Shown: positions 5,186 through 60,486 of the stretch, piece by piece
Position numbering within the stretch: the stretch's first letter is position 1
Layout of the letters: the number at the start of each line of letters is the position of its first letter
From: Octopus vulgaris
Taxonomy: Eukaryota
Assembly: GCA_951406725.2 (NCBI GenBank)
Contig: OX597824.1
Span: 58,714,001-58,778,000, forward strand
DNA length: 64,000 nt
Direction: 5' to 3'
Notes under the pieces: generated by a model
Databases searched by the model: none
Seen by the model: only the letters and a program-made list of their open reading frames with translations
Told to the model about the DNA's origin: nothing
Program-made: the position numbers and the translations under genes

Positions 5186-5440
5186 ACTTGGTAAACAAGC
5201 TACTTACCACACAGTCACTCCTGCGCCTATGTATATATATATATATATATATATGTTCCATGTTTTTACATATTTGTGTACACTTATTCGTGTTATCATT
5301 ATTTTTTTTACGTATTTTTGTAATTTTATTTGTGTAATATCGTCCGGTTTTCCGTCCTTGTTTTGTATACATTCGAGGCTTTCTTCCAAGGAATCTAATG
5401 CGCTTGGCTTAAATTTTCCTTTATGGCTGGCCAGATCGGA

Positions 5441-5506
5441 GCAATCTCAAGATTAATCAGCCGAAATTGCGAGGATGATCCGGTTCTTGACTGAAGATTG
5501 AAGGCT
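5441..5506 (+). ncRNA. putative non-circularly permuted hammerhead ribozyme
   Basis: GCAAT-C^TCAAGA ttaatc AGCC-GAA-ATTGC ... TCTTGA-CTGAAGA-TTGAA-GGCT; stems I and III covary with the 58 kb copies. Confidence 0.75.
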
Positions 5507-5638: not shown

Positions 5639-6226
5639 TGACGTTCGTACCCTTTTGGGTCTTATACGCAAGTATATATTTCTTTAACACATGGTACGAC
5701 TCTACAACACTATCTCTCTCCATCCTCTCCTACATTTCTCTGCCTTTCACACTTTGCACTCCATTTTGATCTGTCTCTTTCTCTCTCTCTCTCTCTTCTC
5801 CTCCTCCTTTGTTCCTTGTTCCCCTTCTTTTTCTCGTCATCTGTCCCTCTTTCCTCTCTCTTCTCCTCACACGTGACTAGCCGACCTATTGCTGGCCTTT
5901 TCGTGGCCAGTAGCCGTCGCGGCAAGACACGTTTTTCTCTCTCTCGCCCTAAGGCATATTTCTAACGCCAGCTCAAAATTTATTCGTCCTGTCAAAAAGA
6001 CGCTTGTCTGTGACGTCCTGTTCTTGTTATTATTATTATCATTATTGTTTTTACGTAGTTTTGTACACTTATTCGTGTTATCATTATTTTTTTTTACGTA
6101 TTTTTGTAATTTTATTTGTGTAATATCGTCCGGTTTTCCGTCCTTGTTTTGTATACATTCGAGGCTTTCTTCCAAGGAATCTAATGCGCTTGGCTTAGAT
6201 TTTCCTTTGGGGCTGGCCAGATCGGA

Positions 6227-6292
6227 GCAATCTCAAGATTAATCAGCCGAAATTGCGAGGATGATCCGGTTCTTGACTGAAGATTGAAGGCT
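6227..6292 (+). ncRNA. putative non-circularly permuted hammerhead ribozyme (second copy)
   Basis: Identical to 5441-5506. Confidence 0.75.
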
Positions 6293-10099: not shown

Positions 10100-12193
10100 T
10101 ATGCATGGGCGAGTTCTACCAGTATGCCTCGGGAGTGGCCATGGGAACGAGAACGGGCCCCAACTATGCGAACCTGTTCGTTGGCTATGTTGAGGGCCAA
10201 ATATTCTCCAGCTTCACTGGTGCCACTCTCGAACTATAAGGCCGTTATATTGACGACTTTATCGGAGCCACCTCACTCTCCCTCGAACATCTAGACTCCT
10301 TCCTCTCATTCGTCAAATCTTTCCATCCTGCCCGCCACTACCCCTGCACTATCTCTGATACCTCCTTTCTTGACATTTCAGTCAGCATTCATCACACCAC
10401 TCTTACCATCTCCATCCACTACAAACACAGATACTCACACTCATACCTCAACTTCTCCTCCTCCCACCCCAAACACACCAAGCTTTCCATCCCCTATTCC
10501 CAATTCTTCCGTCTACGCAGGCTCTGTAGTGACGACCATGACTTTGAGACTCAGTCTCAACTCATGACTCGCCACTTCATCCTACGTGGATATCCCCTCA
10601 CCACTATCCACACCACCCTTGCCAGAGAACGTTCCGTGGATCGTGCATCTGCTCTCTCCCCCCGAACCCGCCCTGCAGTCCCCCGCCTCCCTTTTCCCCT
10701 CACATACCACCCCACCACCCTTCCTCTCCAACGCAACATTCTCTAAGCCTTCCGGCATCTCCAGTCCGACCCGTCCACTTCACACATCTTCCCTAACCAA
10801 CCCCTCCCCTCCTTCAAACGAGCCCACAACCTACGAGACCTCTTGGTCCACAGCTTCTTCCTCAACCCTACCTCCAAACCTGGTTCGTTCCCCTGCTTCC
10901 ACCCACGCTGTCACACTTGCCCTTACCTCTCTAACACTACCCTCCTCACCGGCACCCATCATCGACCCTATCGCATCACCGACTCCTTCACCTGCACCTC
11001 CAACAATATCATCTATTGCAACTCCTGCTCTCTCTGCCATTCCATGAACATCGGACAAACGGGACACCGCTTGGCTGACCTGTTCGCGGAACATCTCTGA
11101 GACATTCGACTCGACAATGACACCCCGGTCTCACGCCATTTCCGCTCCACCGGTCACTCCTTGCAACACCTGTCTGTGTTCGGATTGTCCTTGCACAGAG
11201 GCCATCCGGGCTCTCGTTTGCACTCTCTTCGCTCTCTTACGCCATTTGAGCTCAACACTCCTCCCCTCTTCATCTAACCTCCTCCCCGACTCCCACTTCT
11301 CTTCACTCCTACATCTCTTCACCCCTAGTCTCTTTCCCTCTTCTCTCTTACTCTATGTCCCTCTTCTGTCTTACCCTCTTTCTCTCTTCTCTCTTACTCT
11401 CTGTCTCTCTTCTCTCTTTCTCTCTTCTCTCTTACTCTCTTCTCTCTTACTCTCTTTCTCTCTTCACTCTTACTCCCTTCTCTCTTCTCTCTTGCTCTCT
11501 TTCTCTCTTCTCTCCTCCTCTCTCCTCACATATCCACCTTCCCCTCCCCCATAAGCCCACCCACCTCTACACATTCCTACTCCACCTTCCCTATCCTTCT
11601 CACCCCCATCCCATCACCCCATCGTATCCCACACGCCCTCTCCCACATACCCCACCCTACCCCCACCCTCTGCCTACTTACAAAACCCCAACTCTACCCC
11701 AACCCTCAGCCGAGCCCACACCCCACCTATGCTTTCCCCACTCTCGCCTCCCTCACCTCCCAACAACATTACACCATACAACATTACACCATACAACATT
11801 ACACATCACATCACAACACACCACCCACACACCCATCCCCACATTTTCACACCTACACATACATACATGCACACGTCCAGACCACCAGCCCTCTTTCACA
11901 CGCACATACATACTCACTTATACACACAACCACCTTCGTGTTGGGGGTCATCTTTACTTTGTTATCTCCCCTACTTTCCTACTCGTGTGTGACCCTTCTG
12001 TCCGAGTCAGTCGCCATGATAGATCGTTAGCCACTACACACATTTTTTCTCTCCTTGTTTTTTCTGTGTCCCTTTCTGTAGACGAGCGTAGGCTCGAAAC
12101 GTAAAGGACTTTTTCTATTCCTGAGCGTTATACTAATACATCTGTTTGTTTTTTACACCACCTGTCTTCGTCTTTTGTTTTTTCGTAAACTCT

Positions 12194-12196
<3 letters not shown>
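10100..12196 (+). mobile_element. Penelope-like retroelement (Neptune-like), 5'-truncated, degenerate RT + GIY-YIG
   Basis: GVAMGTRTGPNYANLFVG, RYIDD, YLNFSSSHP, CFHPRCHTC, NIIYCNSCSLCHSMNIGQTG...FAEHL; stops and frameshifts; pyrimidine-rich tail ends at (TA)n. Confidence 0.93.
12068..12110 (+). ncRNA. minimal hammerhead-like motif in the PLE 3' pLTR
   Basis: GTCCCTT-TCTGTAGACGA-GCGTAGGCTC-GAAAC-GTA^AAGGAC; atypical 5' core; homologous motifs near 30695-30735 (+) and 34060-34100 (-). Confidence 0.45.
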
Positions 12197-12246
<50 letters not shown>

Positions 12247-13173
12247 TTATGAGAGTTAATGGTGTCAAGAAGAGTAAGTGATATGTACAGACTATAGCTA
12301 AGCTCCAGGTTCGGTGATTATGCGAATGAGAAGTCCAACTTAGGTCATATATCAGCATGCGTATATATAAAAAATAATTAACAGAATGAGATAAAAAGCC
12401 AAGGCTGCAAAGATTTCAGAACATTTATAAATAGAAGGTCTTACAGCTGTTTCCGGGATATTTTATATCTACAGCCATATACAAATAGATTTGCATATGG
12501 CTCTAAGTTAATCCTCCAAATTCACCTAATTGTTACTGCCGTCCTGGAACCATGTGCCCGTTACAAATCCATTGCAGAAGATATAATGTAATTTACAAAC
12601 GTACTGTCCTTAATCTATTACACAACTCTACAGCCATATACATAGAATCAACCATAAATTTTAAGCAACGACATGCTGCTCACCTCCACTCTTTTAGATA
12701 CGATAAACATAGTAAATCTACAACACTCGCCAACCACATAAATCATTTCAAAAATACAAATATACCCTATACTTTGTCATGGTCCATACCGGATTCAGGG
12801 CTTCCCTACCGAGGTCAACGCTCAACCTGCAAGTTTTGCCTGAAGGAAGCGCTTCACATATTAAAGCACAATTCTCCAACACTGCTAAATAAACATAATG
12901 AGGCACTAAGCACATGCAACCACCGCTTTTTTCACTCATTCAAATACTACCACAAATCTAAATGCCTAAATGACCATACAGTATATTTACATAATACCCC
13001 TTAGGTAATCCCAATAACCTTATAAATTTACATTTTAACTCCTAATCCCTATCTAATTCCTCTTTCACACTTGAATATCACAATCATTTAATTGCATTTG
13101 TATGTATATGCGTGCGTACGCATGTACGTGTGTGTGTGTGTATGTCTGTGTACATGTGTGTGTTTATGTGTGT

Positions 13174-14340: not shown

Positions 14341-14388
14341 GTCTCCGATGAAGGGATATATAAAGTATCCCGGAAACAGCTGTAAGAC
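14341..14388 (+). ncRNA. type I hammerhead ribozyme of the Naiad-like pLTR (U4C variant)
   Basis: GTCT-CCGATGA-A-GGGATA(7)TATCCC-G-GAAAC-AGCT-GTA^AGAC. Confidence 0.75.
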
Positions 14389-14470
14389 CTTCTATTTATA
14401 AATGTTCTGAAATCTCTACAGCCTTGGCTTTTTGTCTCATTCTGTTAAGTGATATATATATATATATTTA

Positions 14471-14525
<55 letters not shown>

Positions 14526-15504: not shown

Positions 15505-16208
15505 CTATAAAATTGGATTCAATCCAAAATCTGATTTTTCCCTGTAATATATATTCTTCATGGTCTCCTCGCACCATTCCCCTTCTTCTCTCTCTTCCTC
15601 TTGCTCCTCCTCCCCCATTCCCGTCGTCCATCTGCGACGTACTTCCGTCGTAACTGCTATCCCGTCCTTTCTCACCTGCCTTCTAAGGCCACTGGTCGAC
15701 ATCTTCCTCTCTCGTCGTCCACTATAATCCAGCGTTTGCAATACTTTTTTCGTCTGGCGTTAACAGCCCTTCTTATCTTGCTCTCCTTGTCCTGTCTCTC
15801 ACTGTTATATATTTATTTTTCCACTGTTTATATATATATTTTTTACTGTTTATATGTTTGTACTGTCGTTACCGTCTTGCTTTTTTACCCCTCTGCGACA
15901 AGATCTCAGAATTTTAATTGATTTGCTTTTCGCAGGAAGGAATTTTTCATTCGAAGTATACGTCTCGCTTTTATCCTTCGAAACGTTTAGTAGATGAAAC
16001 TTTAGCGACTGAAGAAGGGGATTTTTCGTTGTGCTTATTGTCCTGTATCTCCTTTTTTTGCTTGTCTTGTTCCTTGGTTTGTGTCTATGTTTTTCGTCTC
16101 TCTATGTGTTCGACGTCCTTTTGGTGTCCTGTACACATATATGCGTGTATATGTACATGTAGAGGTAGGTACGTACATATATGTTTATATATATGCATAT
16201 ATTTTATT

Positions 16209-16212
<4 letters not shown>
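15505..16212 (+). mobile_element. non-coding repeat carrying a permuted hammerhead
   Basis: Pyrimidine-rich 5' part, structured core, ends in (TA)n; architecture like family C. Confidence 0.55.
15945..16022 (+). ncRNA. putative non-circularly permuted hammerhead ribozyme
   Basis: TATACGT-C^TCGCT ttt ATCCTT-C-GAA-ACGTTTA ... AGCGA-CTGAAGA-A-GGGGAT; extra helix TTTCAT/ATGAAA. Confidence 0.75.
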
Positions 16213-16244
<32 letters not shown>

Positions 16245-16319
16245 TTGACAGAATGAGATAAAAATCGAAGGCTGTAAAGATTTCAGAATATTTCTAGATA
16301 GAATGTCTTACGCGACACA

Positions 16320-16970
16320 GTACGCGACCGTTACTTTATATCACCTCGCCCAGATCAACCAGGTCCCTCTGACAGGACCCTTCTCTTTAAGAGAAGTGTG
16401 GAGGATAATCCTCCTTGCAAGGCCTCTGACATAACAGAACAAGTTGATGCCAGTGCCAGAACAGCTGTCAGGTACCTCCACAAACTTCGTTACTATAGCA
16501 GAACAGCAAGAAGGAAGCCACTTCTTCGACCAGCCAAAATCAAGCGGAGAAAAGATTGGGTAAGTGAGATGGTGGAGAGACCACTAGCATTTGGGGACAC
16601 TGTCATATTCTCTGATGAGTCCAAATTTGCTGTATTTCCTGACGGTAGTCGTGTGTGGGTCTGGAGATTCTGTAGTCAAGAATTGATGTGAAAAGATTGC
16701 AACCATCAATGAAATATGGCAGCTTTTCTGTGATGGCCTAGGGAGAAATAGTAGCCGTCGTCAGTCAAGCCAGTCACCAGATATGAACCCTAATGAACAC
16801 TTCTTGGACATGAGGGACAGGGCACTATCTTCAAAGCCAGACTTTTTGAGATTATTGCATGAAGCTTGGCAATAAATTCCCCAAAAGAATATTCATCTCA
16901 CCAGGAACATGCCTAATAGGGTCCTTGCATTGAAAAATACACAGGGTATGTCTACTAAATATCAAATATC
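16320..16970 (+). pseudogene. Tc1-like DD34E transposase remnant
   Basis: ARRKPLL, VIFSDESKF, VWVWR, QSPDMNPNEH, MPNRVLAL; frameshifted and internally deleted. Confidence 0.88.
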
Positions 16971-29320: not shown

Positions 29321-30808
29321 TGAGACTCAGTCTCAACTCATGGCTCGCCACTTCATCCTATGTGGATATTCTCTCACCACTATCCACACTGCCCTTGACA
29401 GAGCACGTTCCGTGGACCGTGCATCTGCTCTCCCCTACGCACTCGCCCTGCCGTCTCCCGTCTCCCGTTTCCCTTAACATACGACCCCACCACCCTACCT
29501 CTACAACGCACCATTCTCTGAGCCTTCCAGAGACTCTAATCCGACCCCTCCATTTCGCAAATATTCCCTAACCGACCCCTCACTTCCTTCAAACGAGCCC
29601 ACAACGTACGAGACCTCTTGGTCCACAGCTTCTTCCCTAACCCAACCTCCCAACCCAGCTCGTTCCCCTGCTCCCGCCCTCACTGCCGCACTTGCCCTTA
29701 CCTCTCCAACACCACTCCCCTCACCGGCACCCATCATTGACCCTATCACATCACCGACTCCTATACCGGCATTTCTAACGATGTCATTTACTGTATCTCC
29801 TGCTCTCTCTGCCCCTCTCTATACATCGGGCAAACGGGACACCGCTTGGCTGACTGGTTCGCAGAACATCTCCGAGACATTCGACTCGGCAATGGCACCC
29901 TGGTCTCACTCCATTTCCGCTCTGCCGGTCACTCTTTGCAACACCTGTCTGTGTTCGGATTGTTCTTGCACAGGATCCATCCGGACTCCCGTTTGCACCG
30001 TGAACTGGGATTAATCTTCTCTCTTCGCTCCTTCGCACTATATGGGATCAACTCCCCTCTTAATCTAACCTCCTCCCCTCTCCTCTCTCCCCTCACACCT
30101 ACTTCCTCCCACCCACCTCTTCTCTCTTGCTCCGACTCCTACTTCTCGTTACTCCTACCCACCTTCTCCCTTCCTCCTCCATCATCACTCCTCCCTCGTA
30201 ACCCTACATCCACCCCTACACAATCCAACGCCACCTTCCCTATCCATCCCACCCCACCCCATCTCTTAGACCCACTCCCACAAATCCCACCTCTACCCCA
30301 AACCTCAGCCTAACCCACACCCCACCCTTGCTTTCCCCACTTTCGCCTACCCGCCTCCCAACACCACACCACGCACCACTACACCATACACCACCATTCC
30401 TCACAACACCACATCACATCACACCACTACGCACACACTAGCACTGACCACTTCCCAACCCCATATCTACAGACCTACACATACACATACACACAGGTCA
30501 AGGTCACCAGCCCTCTTCCCCACGTACATACATACTCTCTTATACACACGCACGCGCACCTTGGTTTTGGGATCACCACTACTTTATTATCTCCTCTTCT
30601 TCCTAGATCTCCTGTGTGATCCCTCTGTCCATAATTCGCCAAGATAGATCGCTAGCCACTACACATGCTTTATTTTCCCCTTGTTTCTCTGTTTCATCCT
30701 GTGGGAAAGCGTAGGCTCGAAACGTTAAAGACTTCTTCACTTCCCGAGCATTAAACTAATACATCTGTTTGTTGTCTCTGTCTTTGTCTTTTTTTAATGG
30801 ATTCTCCC
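29321..30808 (+). mobile_element. Penelope-like retroelement (Neptune-like), second 5'-truncated copy
   Basis: Homologous to 10545-12196; CSRPHCRTC, VIYCISCSLCPSLYIGQTG...FAEHLRDIR; ends at (TA)n. Confidence 0.93.
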
Positions 30809-31179
30809 TATATATATGTGTGTGTCTGTGCGTGTGTGTGTATGTGTGTGTATGTGTGTGTCTGTGTGTGTGTGTGAGTGTGTGTGTGTATAAACCGGAA
30901 AATGTGTGTCTGCCTGTCTGTGTGCATCATTAAAACTAGAGAACTACCCTATCGATTTCATTCAAATTTTACATATGTCATACTTGGTGTCCAAGCAGTC
31001 TCATGAGCCAAAACAATTTCAACTTCTTGCATAATGCGAGCCCGGAGAAACATCTTATGTCTTATACTATTTCAGTAGGACATGTCAAAAGTAAAACAAT
31101 AACATCTTCATTGTAATGTGAGATAATATTTTCACAATGAATACAGAAACTATTAAGAGTGAAAATATTATCTCCAAGC

Positions 31180-34659: not shown

Positions 34660-34740
34660 AGCTGATTCTCTCATCAGTTGGTTTCCGAGACGTCTTAGTG
34701 GTTTCACGTTATGTAAAACCAAGATCACCGATATCATCGG
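34660..34740 (-). ncRNA. putative non-circularly permuted hammerhead ribozyme (within repeat ~34570-35260)
   Basis: GTGAT-C^TTGGTTT ... GAA-ACCAC ... AAACCAA-CTGATGA-GAGAA; 7-bp stem I; stem II unresolved. Confidence 0.6.
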
Positions 34741-35479
34741 GAGCGCCAGAGCATAGAGCTACAGGAAAAAGCTGACGAACGTGTGTGAGGACAGGACAAA
34801 TAATATTGCGTATGCAATAAGAAATAATAACAAGATATAACACACGAGAAATATGCAATAGAAAACGCCTTACTGCGGTACAATAGGCTGGTGGGGTAAT
34901 TATACGTATACAGTAATAAAACAATACAATACAAAGAGACAAAGCCTTCTCGGCGATCAAGACAGACGTAGTGAGGTAGCGCAATGAAACCGAAAAAGTC
35001 CTTGACGGACAGAACACAAAACATATCAAGTTTGGTCAACAGTAGGGTGGAAAAAAAACGACGCGCTTTACCTGGACAACAGTTACGTGGTAGGAGATGG
35101 GAAGAGTGTGGGGTGGGGGACTAAGGAATGAGACAGAGAAAGAGAGAGGCAGAAGAGAGAAGGAAGGGAGAGAACAGGGCTCAAGGGAGGCAATTAAGGA
35201 GGGGAGGGAAAGATAAATGAGAGAGAAGAGGAAGAGAAGGAAGAGAGGTAGAAAGATAGATAGATAAATAGATAAATACAAACGCACACACACACAAACA
35301 TTATATACCGGTGAGAGGACAAATGAAAGACGGCGACACTGAATACAATTGGAAAGAGCTATATTTATGATTCAATAAAAGTTTGATTCAGCACAATGCA
35401 ACATAATGTTTCGTGGGCTCGTTAAAACAGACCTAGCTCTTCAACTTAGGTAACGAATTCGGTTATATCATATTATATG

Positions 35480-39898: not shown

Positions 39899-40184
39899 GA
39901 TATTGTATAGCGCCGACTAGTATAGTGGTTTGCACATTAGTATGTATAGTGTATAATGTATCATAGTGTAACTGATTAAGGGTGGTGGAGTATAGGCAGA
40001 ATAGGTATTCTACCTGGCCAATTTTTTCCGTAGTATTTACTTAAGCCGTTTATGTTCTGATTACAAATGCTGCTGAAGTCCTCTCAACGTTTCAGAGTCT
40101 ATAATTACTAGCCAAGTCATAGAGACGGTTATCAACCACACTACTCTTTAAAAAGTTTCTCCCCGACTTACGACCTATGCGACT

Positions 40185-42634
40185 TACGAACATCCACAAA
40201 ATAATGGATAATGTGAAAGTGACACCGACACTACTCTCGGATCACAACATGGTAGAGCTGACCATGTACGGGCCAAAGGAAAGCATGGACATGCAGCCTA
40301 CAAGAAACCCTCAGAATCTTTCCAGCTTGAACTTCCATAAGGCAAACTGGAAACAAATTGAGAAAGAGATCCTCAAACAAAACTGGCCTGAATGTCTCCC
40401 CTCGCCTGACATCGACGTGAAACTTCAACAATTCATGTCTGTAATGCAAGCCATATGCTACAAATGTGTCCCAGAGAGAAAAGCCACTGTACACAAGAAC
40501 AAAATCCCCAGAGAGAGGAACATTTTAATGAGACGGCGTACAAAAATTTCAAATCGCCTAAACAAACAAATTGAAAGCAGTGAAAAGTCCCGCCTGAAAA
40601 TAAAACTGTTGTAAATTGAAAATTGTCTGCAACTCTCCCATGAAAAGGTAAGAGCAGACAAAGAAGCCTGGGCTATAGACAACATAAAATCTAACCCCAG
40701 AGCTTTCTACAGGTATGCCAAAGAAACAGCTACGGTGCACTTTAGGATAGGGCCACTCCTTGAAAAGGATGGCACACTCACAGGAAAACCAATAAGGGTA
40801 AGTGAAATACTGAATGAGCAATTCAAGAGTGTTTTCACTCCACCCCTTGGGCATTTCAAAATCACCAATCCAACTGACTTCTTTACCACTGCAGATATAG
40901 AATCAGAGGCGGCGACGATAAATTACATCGATATAAAGGAAGACGATGTAATAAAGGCTATAGATGAAATGAAAACAGACTCAGCTACTGGCCCCGATGG
41001 ATTCCCGGCAATCCTCCTAAAAGTATGTAAGAGAGTCCTAGCAAGACCACTGCAGTTCCTCTTTCAGAGCTTCCTTGCAGCTGGCAAACTTCCAAAAAAA
41101 CTGAAGGAAGGTAAAATATGCCCTATTCATAAAGGAGGTAGCAGAGCGGAGGCCAAGAACTACAGACCTATCTCTCTGACCTCACACATCAGCAAGGTCA
41201 TGGAACGAATAGTCAGAAGGAAACTGATCACCTTCCTTGAAGAAAATGACCTGCTGCCCGACACCCAACATGGTTTCCGACCAGGGAGAAGCTGCTTAAC
41301 TCAGCTCCTACAACACTATGACTGGGTGCTGAAACGACTGCTCAACCACTCAAATGTGGAAGTGATATATCTCGACTTTGCAAAGGCCTTTGATAAAGTC
41401 GATCATGGAATGACATGTCACAAACTGCGTGATCTCAACATAGCTGGAAAACTACTGGGAGAATGGCTTCATGACTTTCTGAAAGATAGAAGGCAGGTGG
41501 TAGTAGCCAATGGGGCCACTTCCATTAACATGCAAATAGTGAGCGGTGTTCCGCAGGGCACTGTTCTGGGACCACTACTGTTCATAATGGCCCTCTCAGA
41601 CATGCCCTCAGCCACGCAGAGAGCCACGATCACAAGTTATGCAGATGATACAAAAGTTTCACAGGCAATACAGAACCCTGAGGACACTAAACGCCTGCAA
41701 TGTGAGCTGGACAAAATATACAAGTGGGCTGAAAAGAATAGCATGCAGTTCAATGCTGAACAATTTCAAGCTTTATACTATCAGCATGCAAAACTAAATG
41801 CAATACCCAATGAATACACTGGACCCGGAGAAATTGCAATCCCAGAGGCACAATCAGTGCGTGACCTGGGTATTTACATGAGTGATGACGCAACCTTTCG
41901 TGTACATGTTGCTAAATTGGCAATGAAATGTAGACGACTGGCCGGATGGATTCTCAGAACCTTTAGAACAAGAGAACAAGAAACCATGATGGTCCTCTGG
42001 AGGACACTTGTCCTAAGCCATTTTGACTATTGCTCTCAGTTATGGTCACCATCCAGTGTCAAGTTGATCACATAACTTGAGGCGATCCAACGTAGCTACA
42101 CGAAGATAGCCTCTATGCAGAATATAAGCTACTGGCAAAGACTCAAGAGATTAAAGCTATATGCCTTGGAGCGTAGGCGGGAAAGATATGCCATAATATA
42201 CATCTGGAAGATCCTGGAGGGACTTGTCCCAAACTTTGGCATCGAGAGTTACACAAATGCCAGAACTGGGCCCCACTGCGTGGTGCCTAGGACTCCAAAT
42301 TTGCCATCAAGATGTAGGACAAGATACTGTGATAGCCTGGGCTTCCGAGGCCCACAGCTCTTCAATATCCTCTCGAAGAACCTAAGAGACCTGCATGGGG
42401 TGGATGCAGATGTCTTTAAAATGAAACTGGATCTCTTCCTGTCAGGTATCCTAGATGAACCAACTTCACGGCAGGAGGTGCAGATGAGGGCAGCTGCATC
42501 GAACTCTCTCATGCACCAAATGGCAGTTGCTAAAAAGCTTTCGTGAAGTAAAACCATGTAGCAACACCAAATGGCGGTGCCCCAGCATGTCCACAGCTCA
42601 TAAGCTGAAACTAGAATCAATCAATTAATCAATT
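40185..42634 (+). mobile_element. 5'-truncated CR1-group LINE ORF2 (APE end + RT) with intact 3' end
   Basis: SDHNMV; GPDG, NYRPISLTS, QHGFRPGRSC, YLDFAKAFDKVDH, SGVPQGTVLGPLLF, YADDTK; stops at ~40612 and ~42073; short 3'UTR plus (TCAA)n-like tail. Confidence 0.93.
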
Positions 42635-43379: not shown

Positions 43380-43995
43380 CACATTTCTTGGCAAACATTT
43401 TCTTTAATCTCTCTACTTTCCTTCGTTATCTCCTTTATACCTGTCCCCCCTCTCTCTCTCAGTCTCTTTCCCTCTCTCTCGCTCTCTAGTTCCTTTCCTA
43501 ATTCATCAATCCTCCTGTCCCCTACCTCTTTCTGTTCCTTCCACGTGACCGGTGTTCAGCCAAGCAAGATCTTTCTTGGCCTGGCCGCCACCCGTACAGC
43601 ACCTTATTTTCCTATCTCCTGACTCCTATGTTTTTCGCAAGGTTTTCACTCCACACGCCAGCTCAACTTGACTTGTCCTTATTAGTCAAAAGACACCTGT
43701 TGTTATTCTCGTGCTGTTTGTATTGTAATCGTGTAACATTTTCTCCGTCTTCTCGTTTTTCTGTCAGTGTTGTCGTACACGTTTGCTTGTTGTCTTCCAA
43801 AATTTATATGCTCTTAGCTTAGATTCTGAAGTGTCTTAAGTGTAACAGGCCGAAACTGTAATGATAATTGAACACTAGACTGATGAACAGAAGGCCACGA
43901 TGGATCAGTCCTGGTTTTTCCTGTCCGTCTTTGTATCGTCTATCTGTCCGTATGTTTTTATTGTCGTCCGTTACGTTCTTATTCCGTTTTTGGAT
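43380..43995 (+). mobile_element. non-coding repeat related to family C
   Basis: Shares cacgtgac, acgccagctcaa, gtcaaaagacacctgt and tgctcttagc blocks. Confidence 0.65.
43829..43896 (+). ncRNA. putative non-circularly permuted hammerhead ribozyme
   Basis: GT-C^TTAAGTGT aaca GGCC-GAA-AC ... ACACTAGA-CTGATGA-ACAGAA-GGCC; stem III eroded to 2 bp. Confidence 0.6.
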
Positions 43996-52700: not shown

Positions 52701-53113
52701 AAAATATTTTAGGCTTGCTGAAAGAATATAAAAGGCTGGAACAAAGGCCAAGGCATCTTTCCCGACCCCTTTAACAGTTCCGCCAATTCATTGCTCTAGT
52801 TTGGAATATCTTTATCTATCTCAAAAGGATGAAAGACAAAGTTGACTCCAGCGGGATTTGAACTCAAATCATAGGCAGGCAGAAGAAATTAGTAATATTG
52901 TACTGACTTTAAATGAAACCATCTTTTCGGAAGAGTTCCTTTTGAGCATGGTGTATGTAAAATTTGTAGGCATATGAAGACTGGCTCCGAGTTGACATAA
53001 AATATTATTATTTTACATAACAATCGTAACAAAATTTTCAACTTCTTATCTTTTATTCTATAAACCTCAACGCATTATTTGGTTTATAGAAACAATAGCA
53101 TCAGAACTTCATT

Positions 53114-54140
53114 GGATCTTTTCCTTTTGAACAGCAGTTTTCAACACAATTTCTAGTTAACTAAACACTTTTAAACTTCGCATACTGGTAGAATGTGTTT
53201 ATAAAGCATCATTTTTTTCTTGGCTTTATTGAGAAAATTCTATATGTTGTAACATATTTCGACTTTAATTTCGAGCATTTCGGCAATTTTAACCAATCGC
53301 TGACCTCCATTTGGAGTGAAAACATTCCGTGCTGTATAAATATGTCCCTCGTTTAAGAAACAGATTGGGTTTATTTACATTTGCAAAGAAAAAAGATGCC
53401 CTTCCCCCACCCCTAACCCTAACCATTCCCCTAACCCTAACCCTAACCCTAACCATAACTCTAAACCTAACCCTAAAATAGATTGAAATGCAATAGATCG
53501 ATACTAGGGTTATAATTATGGGTGACAATTTCATACGACACCGCTACGGAAAATGGGATTTTTTTCTAGCGGTGTCAAATGAAATTGTCACCCATAATTA
53601 TAACCCTAGCATCGATCTATTGCATTTCAATCTATTTTAGGGTTAGGTTTAGAGCTATGGTTAGGGTTAGGGTTAGGGTTAGGGGTGGGGGAAGGGTACC
53701 TTTTTTTATTCGCAAATGTAAATAAACCCAATCTGTTTCTTAAACGAGGGACATATTCATACAGCACGGAATGTTGTTTACGTCAATGGAGATCAGCGAT
53801 TGGTTAAATTTGCCGAAATGCTCGAAATTAAAGTCGAAATATGTTACAATATATAGAATTTTCTCAATAAAGCCAAGAGAAAAAATGATGATACATAGAA
53901 TTTCCTTGTATGGGTTTGTGTGTATATATGTGTGTTTACGTTTATTTTACATGTGATTTTGAATCTTTATTCCATGGGTTCTTCTCTTCTAAAATTATGG
54001 AATCCCATAGTTCCATATAACTAAGCATGTTCAACATTTGCATCAAAGGCAATAAACACATTCTACCAATATACGAAGTTTAAAAGTGTTTAGTTAACTA
54101 GAAATTGTGTTGAAAACTGCCGTTCAAAAGGAAAATATCC
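53114..54140. mobile_element. fold-back derivative of a Merlin-like MITE (two arms in inverted orientation)
   Basis: Termini GGATCTTTTCC / GGAAAATATCC; 8-bp TSD ACTTCATT (53106-53113, 54141-54148); ~440-bp inverted arms with (CCCTAA)n/(TTAGGG)n. Confidence 0.88.
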
Positions 54141-58019: not shown

Positions 58020-58084
58020 AGCTTTCAATCTTCAGTCGATAGCAGATCGTCTTTGCAGTTTCGGCGTGTTAATTTCGAGACTGC
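58020..58084 (-). ncRNA. putative non-circularly permuted hammerhead ribozyme
   Basis: GCAGT-C^TCGAAA ttaaca CGCC-GAA-ACTGC ... TCGA-CTGAAGA-TTGAA-AGCT. Confidence 0.65.
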
Positions 58085-58624
58085 TCTAATCTGACCGGCC
58101 CCAAGGAAATCTATGCTAAGAGCACTAGATTCTTTGGAAGAAAGCAAGCAAATGTATGCTAAAACAAGGACGAAAAAGAAAAAAAAATGGACAAAATTGT
58201 ACACAATTGCAAATACAAACAGCAGGACATTAACAACAGGTGTCTTTTAACTAAGGTCGAATTAAATTAAACTGGCGGTGGTGGAAGTGAAAGCCTTACG
58301 ACAGGAACATAGAACATGAAAGTCATAGGAAGAAATACGCGAGATGCTGCACGGATGGTAATCGAACCAAGAAAGAAAGATCAGGCTTGGTCGAAGGTCG
58401 GTTACGTGGAAGGAGAGGAGAGAGGTAGTGGATAGAGAGATTTAAGAATTAGGGAAGGATGAGAAAGAGAGAAAATAGGAAAGTTACAGACTGAAGTAAA
58501 GGAGGGAAAGTGATGAGAATGAAGGGAGTGCCAAGAAATGTGGGAGAGCGTGGGAGCGAGAAAAAGAAAAGTGGAACGAAGAAAGTGTGAAAGAGGCTAA
58601 ATGAAAGAGTAAGAGTCGTACAGA

Positions 58625-58844: not shown

Positions 58845-58910
58845 AGCTTTCAATCTTCAGTCGAGAAGCAGATCGCTTTTGCAGTTTCGGCGTGTTAATC
58901 TCGAGACTGC
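58845..58910 (-). ncRNA. putative non-circularly permuted hammerhead ribozyme
   Basis: GCAGT-C^TCGAGA ttaaca CGCC-GAA-ACTGC ... TCTCGA-CTGAAGA-TTGAA-AGCT. Confidence 0.72.
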
Positions 58911-58961
58911 TCTAATCTGGCCGGCCCCAAGGAAATATATGCTAAGAGCACTAGATTCTTT

Positions 58962-59415
58962 GGATCTTTTCGGTTTGAAAGGCAGTGTTTAACATAATTT
59001 CTAGGTAACTAAAAAATTTCAAACTTCGTATACTGGTAGAATGTGTTTATAAAACATCTTTTTCTCTTGGCTTTATTGAGAAAATTCTATAGTTTGTAAG
59101 ATATTTGTTGTTTTTTTCTTCAATTTCTGCAATTTCAATCATTCACTGACGTCCATTAAGGTAAACAACATTCTGTGCCGTATGAATATGTCCCTCTTTT
59201 AAGAAACAGATTGGGTTTATTTACATTTGTGAAGAAAAAAAGATACCCTTTCCTCCACCCCTAACCCTAATCCTAACCCTAACCTTAACTAATCCTAACT
59301 AACCCGAACCCTAAAATAGATTGAAATACAATAGATCGATACTAGGGTCATAATTATGGGTGACAATTTCATATGACACCGCTAGAAAAAACTGTCAATC
59401 GAACCGAAAAGATCC
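58962..59415. mobile_element. Merlin-like MITE carrying telomere-like repeats
   Basis: TIRs GGATCTTTTCGGTTTGA / TCGAACCGAAAAGATCC; 8-bp TSD GATTCTTT; empty site in the paralog at ~58128; degenerate (CCCTAA)n at 59258-59314. Confidence 0.9.
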
Positions 59416-60486
59416 GATTCTTTCGAAGAAAGCAAGCGAATGTATACGAAAACAAGGACGAAAAGAAAACAACGGAGAAATGGTACACATTTACAAATAC
59501 AAACAACAGGACATTAACAACAGATGTCTTTCGACTAAGGACGAATTAAATTAAGCTGGCGTATATATATATATATAAGCCATGCACGAGCCATTACATC
59601 CTACCTTTGTTACCATCATACTCTGCAGTGTCACTGTACATACCAAATCCTAATACTCAAATCTTTATTATGTTTATGCAATATAATCTTGAAATTAAAA
59701 AATAAAAATATTATTGTTACAACAACAACTGCTACTACTACTACTACTACTACTACTACAATTTTTCAAATTCTTGCATTTTTGTATTAACAGAAGAAAT
59801 AACATAAAATTCTCTATCCTTTGTTTCATTCCTCCCTCTATATCATTACCTACTTTACCCCCTACTCCTCTCTACCCTCTACTCCATCCTCAACCTCATC
59901 CTCTACCCAATTATTTATCTTATCCTCAACTCCACTCTAGACTTCCTCATTAAATTCCTATATTTTCACTTAAATTCCTATATTTAGCCTTCTTTAAAAT
60001 TTGCTTTGTCTTCCTCACTCTCTGTCACTTTACTCCCCTCTGTTTTTATGTCAGTAATATTTTTTAGTGTCAAAGGATGGTTTGAAAAAAATGGAGCTTC
60101 GTAGATATATGTGTGTGTGAGTATGGGTGTGTGTGTGTGTGATTCTCTTATCTATCCCTTTCGCTCTCTTGTCTCTGTTTTTTTTTCATATTTACTCTCC
60201 GTTCAAATCATCACCGACGTTTATGGCTCATTACAGGCTAAGTAGAGAAGGCATAAGTAGATATATATGTATGTATGCATGCATGTATGTATGTATATTT
60301 ACATACATGCATACATATATGCACATAGCAATCAACATGTATATAAGCTTGTGTGTGAGAGAGACAGCAAGTATTCACTCGCATATTCACATAGCTTTCC
60401 AAATATGTATATACACACATTATTCTCTCTATTTACACACACATGTTTATATATATATATGTATATATGTATACACACACACACAC

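Follow-up and report, generated by a model that had tools for sequence, protein, structure and literature searches.

Rearranged hammerhead ribozymes were described in 2023 from 583 SGC and 2 CSG sequences, all of them from metatranscriptomes (Eckert, Friedrich, Weinberg, Weinberg, PMC10085705). As that account presents it, type SGC typically has a 3-nt linker between stems I and II and a fourth helix, and the core is assumed to be inseparable from the stem II strand next to it (PMC10085705). The published description of the Naiads, a group of Penelope-like elements, reports them as lacking canonical hammerheads, flags 8 with a 'half core' and calls the cephalopod Naiads long inactive (Craig et al. 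2021, PMC8557442). Metazoan non-LTR retrozymes (Cervera and de la Pena 2020, PMC7229834; Li et al. 2026 preprint) lack coding capacity, repeat in tandem with a hammerhead in each unit and are presumed to owe their movement to Penelope-like elements; they are defined by type I hammerheads, and their units are mostly 170–400 nt long, reaching 972 bp in the preprint. In the anole Penelope element, hammerhead cleavage was reported to be protein-assisted and dispensable in vitro (PMC11167929).

Here we analyze a motif in a 64-kb stretch of the Octopus vulgaris genome (hereafter the window). With type SGC (HRIMA-1 and variants, as described) it shares the order site - GAAA - core, a short linker, a bridging fourth helix and an intact core; in type SGC the stem II 5' and fourth-helix strands come after the core, whereas in the octopus copies both come before the site, an order we write X-S-G-C. 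The type SGC examples published with covariation are from metatranscriptomes, whereas the octopus ones lie in an animal genome, within a retroelement, in tens of thousands of copies. The octopus element resembles Naiads as described in its (TA)n targeting, 5' truncation, partial tandems (PMC8557442) and X-S-G-C 3' ends, but it is non-coding, its copies are near-identical where cephalopod Naiads are called long inactive, and the likeness traced in its sequence is that of the fold. Compared with retrozymes, the octopus elements have a permuted hammerhead, units of 750–900 nt and short partial tandems, and are known from DNA. With the anole element they would share internal priming at AT-rich targets (PMC11167929, as reported there). 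A literature search in which subscription journals were thinly covered found no X-S-G-C wiring, no animal SGC or CSG hammerheads and no Naiad hammerheads.

The motif at position 15964 and its relatives

The features discussed below are as follows (positions in the window).

15554–16213 (+): solo copy, truncated at its 5' end to monomer positions 173–833, of a non-coding Penelope-type element of 833 nt; identity to the monomer of locus L007 is 99.5%
15936–15941 (+): X1, proposed stem II 5' strand, starting with G10.1; six Watson-Crick pairs with 15974–15979; covariation
15945–15952 (+): X2, 5' strand of the fourth helix, the one that bridges stems I and II; pairs with 15993–15999; score 5.4 vs 3.6; covariation
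15953–15959 (+): 5' side of the internal loop that separates the fourth helix from stem III (the GAA of AGUA/GAA), from loop comparison
15960–15969 (+): block S, comprising the stem III 5' strand, GUC site and stem I 5' strand; from sequence and covariation, with 8/48 listed 5' junctions starting at the 15965-equivalent
15970–15973 (+): linker from stem I to stem II, 4 nt (3 nt in the register of an earlier note on this DNA); from sequence
15974–15986 (+): block G, comprising the stem II 3' strand ending in C11.1, GAAA and the stem III 3' strand; from sequence and covariation
15987–15999 (+): 3' side of the internal loop (AGUA), followed by the fourth helix's 3' strand, from loop comparison
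16004–16015 (+): stem I 3' strand and catalytic core CUGAAGA, ending at A9; from sequence and covariation
16016–16030 (+): strand after A9, previously proposed as stem II partner; by pairing tests no more than a G-U-rich helix of 4 pairs, or else a local hairpin
16214–16241 (no strand): (TA)n run abutting the copy's 3' end, the sequence into which the family usually inserts; from sequence and family loci

Read from the sequence, the motif consists of a GUC site with its C at 15964, GAAA at 15980–15983 and the core CTGAAGA at 16009–16015. Stem I is formed by TCGCT (15965–15969) and AGCGA (16004–16008), and stem III by ACGT (15960–15963) and ACGT (15983–15986). The letters are as the earlier note gave them, and the blocks stand in the order site - GAAA - core. 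Stem III, which the note called extendable, cannot be extended directly, since the next pair would be T15959/T15987. The elements CUGANGA, GAAA and NUH adjoin three stems, as in hammerheads, and stems I, II and III all covary, stem II in the upstream register described below. The copy does not have the cyclic order core - GAAA - site of types I, II and III, but has the S, G, C block order and short stem I-II linker of type SGC. This order makes it a non-circular arrangement of type SGC and no circular permutation of hammerhead types I–III.

A descriptor of the site-GAAA-core order matched the window 4 times, whereas 60 dinucleotide shuffles averaged 0.1 matches; the shuffles together yielded 6 matches, 2 of them scoring as high as the 15964 copy. 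Rfam returned 0 matches at the gathering score across the whole 64-kb window. Judged from its sequence, the motif at 15964 is a non-circularly permuted hammerhead with cleavage predicted after C15964, as was claimed previously.

The window holds further copies.

5425–5497 (+): sister-family copy with the same wiring, an AUC site at 5446 and a kink-turn-like internal loop; from the descriptor and the core collection
6211–6283 (+): second copy in the same partial tandem, site at 6232; from the descriptor and the four-helix alignment
58854–58926 (−): related copy, GUC site at 58905, with just 3 contiguous pairs in the upstream stem II; from the core collection
58029–58100 (−): second copy of the 58-kb partial tandem, site at 58079; from the core collection
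43830–43886 (+): decayed copy, 69% like the 58-kb family, its upstream strand apparently deleted; read by eye

The site - GAAA - core order also occurs in another family, now decayed, at 34677–34760 (−) and at locus L096. Genome-wide, the sister family of the 6232 copy has 2,252 candidates, the pattern GAAAY-N23,24-CTGAWG occurs 42,000 times against 7,494 for a reversed control, and CGAAAC-N16-22-CTGAWGA occurs 1,996 times against 515. Twenty arbitrary 10-kb stretches contained no family member and 1 weak core, which fits about 1 copy per 80 kb and adds no support.

The stem II partner and the overall fold

In the standard numbering of hammerhead pairs, the 10.1-11.1 pair at the start of stem II is of particular importance. 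Hammerhead ribozymes cut down to this single pair have been described (PMC544870, as reported there). The stem II proposed earlier, ATCCTT/GGGGAT, uses the strand downstream of the core. It can be drawn with 6 pairs, 2 of them G-U, only by setting A16016 opposite C15979; what had been described as a core without an insert therefore carries a mismatch at the conserved 10.1-11.1 pair. Upstream of the site, GAAGGA (15936–15941) forms six Watson-Crick pairs with TCCTTC (15974–15979), the first of which is G10.1-C11.1. The computed duplex energy is −8.9 kcal/mol for this upstream partner and −5.1 kcal/mol for the downstream one. The 3-nt linker between stems I and II holds in the downstream register and becomes 4 nt (15970–15973) in the upstream one, and the limits previously set for the motif, 15945..16022, leave out the upstream strand, which does lie inside the transcript proposed for it (15935–16030).

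To compare the two partners we used a collection of 70 distinct cores out of 193 records, from which 3 truncated rows were dropped and the rest collapsed to 30 non-redundant cores, with probable chance matches kept. In these 30 unselected cores the upstream partner scored at least 5 in 20/30, against 4.3% of cross-family pairs, and the downstream partner in 1/30, against 7.8%. In a 26-row alignment of the upstream register, 82.7% of 156 cells are paired, with 50 double changes (0/500 shuffles), the rows having been picked after inspection and being related, so that cells are not independent events. Registers slid from the upstream one pair 22–47% of cells in the same 26 rows. Across families, the downstream register pairs at chance (43.7% vs 43.4% shuffled), with 10.1-11.1 paired in 2/24, and the next register pairs 61.8% of cells; among 18 close relatives the downstream register falls below the shuffles (56.5% vs 59.2%). 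Rows in which an insertion removed the upstream strand are uninformative for stem II, a pairing scan over all columns was swamped by G-U noise, and one alignment that set the Naiad rows out of register was left out of the counts.

With the upstream strand as stem II, the four-helix fold is 94.9% paired in 13 sister-family rows, with double changes at 15/24 pairs, and 88.9% paired in 18 rows that include the 15964 copy, with double changes at 17/21 pairs. The first stem II pair is G-C in 13/13 sister-family and 17/18 15964-like rows, while the helix takes such varied forms as GAAGG/CCTTC, GGCTG/CAGCC, GGGCA/TGCCC, GAGCA/TGCTC and GACAC/GTGTC. The downstream stem II, with its 10.1-11.1 mismatch and chance-level pairing, is probably wrong, as far as sequence comparison can tell. 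If stem II is formed by the upstream strand, the copy lacks the stem II 5' strand directly after CUGANGA that completes block C in type SGC, and the ribozyme would be opened between A9 and G10.1, a break that none of the six published permutations has. In many 15964-like copies the strand after A9 (the equivalents of 16016–16030) forms a small hairpin, and in many it resembles a decayed duplicate of the upstream strand.

The alternative that survives best is that an ordinary SGC ribozyme is active, with G16017-C15979 opening a 4-pair stem II after a one-nucleotide insertion, A16016, and with the upstream strand serving as a switch or brake until a protein or later sequence remodels it. In the 18 15964-like rows this 4-pair helix is 97.2% paired, mostly by G-U, against 87.0% in shuffles (0/500), which would allow a normally connected conformer for the 15964 copy; G16017 and G16019 are invariant there, and in many rows of the sister family four downstream pairs can form beyond an insert of 5 nt. 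An often-silent ribozyme would also suit the weak +1 signal in the 15964 family (see below), and the anole Penelope hammerhead is reported to have cleaved only with protein present (PMC11167929). The downstream helix is nevertheless the weaker one (−5.1 vs −8.9 kcal/mol), is mostly G-U and has double changes at 1/4 pairs. It is absent in Naiad-type rows and several sister subfamilies in which the upstream partner persists, and it is the upstream strand that places a G opposite C11.1 and continues into the fourth helix exactly like the stem II strand of type SGC. We regard an active ordinary SGC as unlikely.

The fourth helix (15945–15952 with 15993–15999), absent from the earlier note, has its 5' strand upstream of the cut site. 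With this strand it scored 5.4 within families and 3.6 across families in 22 cores. It bridges stems I and II as in type SGC, but its partner strand lies upstream. A helix pairing the strand after A9 with the strand 5' of X1 was unsupported, and in the comparison of cores no helix that would hold A9 beside G10.1 found support (4.2 vs 4.0). Folding the 15964 copy as a single strand recovers a rod of the fourth helix and stem III. The z-scores of such folding were favourable in 0/5 sequences, as pseudoknots would lead one to expect, and are uninformative.

A kink-turn has a 3-nt bulge followed by tandem G-A and A-G pairs between two helices. Matched to this consensus, the internal loop between the fourth helix and stem III fits in 24/28 sister-family and 6/8 Naiad-type cores, but in only 2/31 15964-like cores and not in the 15964 copy itself, so that a bend in cis is less clear for this copy. 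Its AGUA/GAA loop, which we take to be a loop-E-like motif, is present in 10/31 15964-like cores, this copy included.

We are fairly confident, from the sequence comparisons above, in reading the motif as a hammerhead of a young non-coding Penelope-type element, in the order X-S-G-C and likely opened between A9 and G10.1. The chain would run X1, X2, stem III 5' strand, site, stem I 5' strand, stem II 3' strand, GAAA, stem III 3' strand, X2', stem I 3' strand and CUGANGA, which amounts to type SGC with its ends joined and then reopened between A9 and G10.1. The fourth helix, internal loop and stem III would form a nested rod, bent at the internal loop in a kink-turn-like manner in the sister and Naiad families. 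The end loop of the bent rod would dock on the two tails, forming stems I and II as pseudoknots, and the ribozyme would cut after C15964.

The same helices could instead be completed between molecules, the end loop of one copy docking on the tails of a second; the active unit would be a dimer, and a solo copy would cut poorly. Such a head-to-tail dimer would tolerate both the lack of a kink-turn in most 15964-like cores and their differing rod lengths, and it fits the partial tandems at 16/26 sites; dimeric cleavage has been reported for amphibian retrozyme hammerheads (PMC7229834, as described there). Covariation is blind to cis versus trans. The kink-turn pattern in 24/28 sister and 6/8 Naiad cores, on the other hand, suggests a built-in bend for folding in cis, and the type-SGC RNAs of the published account cleave during transcription (PMC10085705). 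A dimer seems to us rather improbable.

The host element and the 5' ends of its insertions

Searching the genome (2.8 Gb, 227 contigs) with a 201-nt query gave 1,330 candidates, of which 40 were scored, all 100% identical after rounding. The monomer was defined from 30 fetched loci representing 26 distinct sites. At 26/26 sites the copy ends at monomer position 833 or at most 11 nt from it while 5' ends vary, and 16/26 sites have partial tandems. A non-coding unit whose 3' end is fixed, whose 5' end is truncated and which forms partial tandems is what is expected of Penelope-type non-autonomous elements or non-LTR retrozymes, except that a permuted hammerhead takes the place of the retrozymes' type I hammerhead. 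The 833-nt unit has low-complexity open frames only and is without the ORF of a Naiad, which has GIY-YIG at its N-terminus and RT at its C-terminus. The joint between monomer end and start is present in DNA tandems as well as in 4 public runs, which are contigs of guessed RNA status with no ends visible. Some 833-nt insertions are flanked by an inverted duplication of 150–300 nt of neighbouring DNA (locus L007 1300–1490 and 2700–2860; L023).

In the mechanism we propose, tandem transcripts would be cut into 833-nt monomers, and a Penelope-type RT/endonuclease would prime at (TA)n close to the fixed 3' end. Copies made from linear, cut RNA would begin at the cut site, and 1.x-fold tandems would come from templates that are uncut or circular.

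The window contains three fragments that we take to be Penelope-like, none of them named by Pfam. Those at 10240–12244 (+) and 29321–30817 belong to an abundant family (11,357 candidates) with RT and a C-terminal endonuclease, and 12507–13001 (+) to a second endonuclease family (16,000 candidates). By eye, both families have minimal hammerhead-like motifs in the ordinary order: at the 3' ends of the first, with a core starting UYGAAGA, and about 1 kb after the ORF of the second, type I-like with the core CYGAUGA. As autonomous partner of the 833-nt unit either family was rejected, with 0 S-G-C cores in 30 loci each; 20 longer stretches of these families contained no more than 1 core, in antisense, and 1 truncated copy, each of which had inserted separately. 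Other elements in the window are a decayed transposase remnant, presumably Tc1/mariner-like from a motif, at 16242–16900 (+), with related ends at 12362–12468 and 14358–14520; a LINE-type endonuclease/RT element at 40123–42543 (+) (RVT_1, E 3.8e-29); and palindromic elements that have long inverted repeats and contain runs of CCCTAA/TTAGGG, at 53108–54055 and 58956–59561, one of which interrupts the 58-kb hammerhead-bearing element.

If cut RNA serves as template, new copies should begin at +1. We searched for 5' junctions with a (TA)5-gap-anchor pattern. In the sister family, 866+241 matches fell in a 14-nt window spanning the site (plus and minus strand; overlapping rows on the plus strand, one row per locus on the minus strand), with a control of 0, compared with 135+51 in a control window about 25 nt downstream and 93+33 in one about 30 nt upstream; the three anchors are about equally common in fetched loci (35, 34, 29 and 6, 6, 15). 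Counted by hand, the 41 loci among the 100 rows listed start 21 times at +1, 8 at +3, 7 at +4 and 1 at +5, with 4 at −3/−4, where microhomology is longer, and none elsewhere upstream. The 15964 family was searched with the site window only; in 48 loci from the 100 listed of 107 rows, 8 start at +1, 2 at +3 and 24 in a T run from +5 to +7, while 12 start upstream and 2 are ambiguous. Naiad-type junctions fall at +1 in 3/11, being few and confounded by TA microhomology.

The pile-up of starts at the predicted cut in the sister family is indirect evidence of cleavage in vivo, and the signal is weaker in the 15964 family. The 15964 copy, once singled out as the best candidate for biochemistry, is on this account a doubtful choice, since it is truncated, stands alone and has two strands competing for stem II, while the stronger sign of cleavage in vivo belongs to the 5446/6232 sister family. 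That the fold was kept as an RT recognition or stalling structure, with cleavage lost and the pile-up caused by enzyme stalling, finds precedent in the 8/9 predicted Xenopus retrozyme dimers reported not to cleave in vitro (bioRxiv 10.64898/2026.07.22.740005) and in the anole Penelope protein, whose insertion in vitro was described as unaffected by hammerhead mutants (PMC11167929), but is very improbable given that GAAA spacing, U16.1-A15.1, non-G at 17 and G10.1-C11.1 stay constant while all helices change sequence (CUGANGA being required by the search), that the pile-up sits on a single nucleotide at the scissile bond, by which point all 3' pairing partners would already have been copied, and that +1 beats the position with longer microhomology by 21 to 4 in the listed sister-family loci.

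Probable rearranged hammerheads in Naiad elements

We read by eye 16/54 published Naiad consensus 3' ends (PMC8557442, supplement S5; four records named by file order). X-S-G-C wiring was apparent in two octopus Naiads and one bobtail-squid Naiad, whose 3' ends are flagged 'HHR_half_core' in that supplement, and the octopus Naiad consensus has the upstream wiring with no downstream stem II partner. Among nematode Naiads, 5/5 appeared as clean type CSG, with stems that differ between species and a fourth helix of 9–16 pairs. Two spider Naiads read as SGC with a long insert between stems I and II, and one spider core has a compensatory U3-A8 swap. Three ostracod Naiads have S, G and C in order across a several-hundred-nucleotide insert, without a clear stem II, and in 3 of the 16 3' ends no hammerhead blocks were seen. 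In the octopus genome, a 21-nt motif of the octopus Naiad has 200 exact matches (control 0), and a Naiad RT-like peptide lies 1.5–1.7 kb upstream in 2/20 fetched genomic copies of the Naiad-type motif. Naiad was the only protein-coding element found with X-S-G-C wiring.

From these consensus sequences, rearranged hammerheads are a likely explanation for the apparent lack of a normal one in Naiads. On balance we lean towards a broader view: that X-S-G-C is the seventh hammerhead topology found in nature, opened within the catalytic core between A9 and G10.1, hinged by a kink-turn or something similar and cleaving in vivo in cephalopod retroelement copies that number tens of thousands; that one reverse-order cycle, opened as CSG in nematodes, SGC in spiders and X-S-G-C in cephalopods, is the overlooked ribozyme of many Naiads; and that non-circularly permuted hammerheads are common in animal genomes.

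If the fold is active, the assumption of an inseparable block would fail and the A9-G10.1 link would be dispensable, and two pseudoknots on a hinged rod would offer a new architecture for structure work and RNA engineering. The nematode CSG Naiads would add 5 examples of a type published, in the account cited above, from only two sequences. Starts piled at the scissile bond would connect cleavage by the ribozyme with Penelope-type retrotransposition in vivo; the in vitro study of the anole element, as published, found no such connection (PMC11167929). For the Naiads, an active fold would provide a testable answer to their apparent lack of hammerheads.
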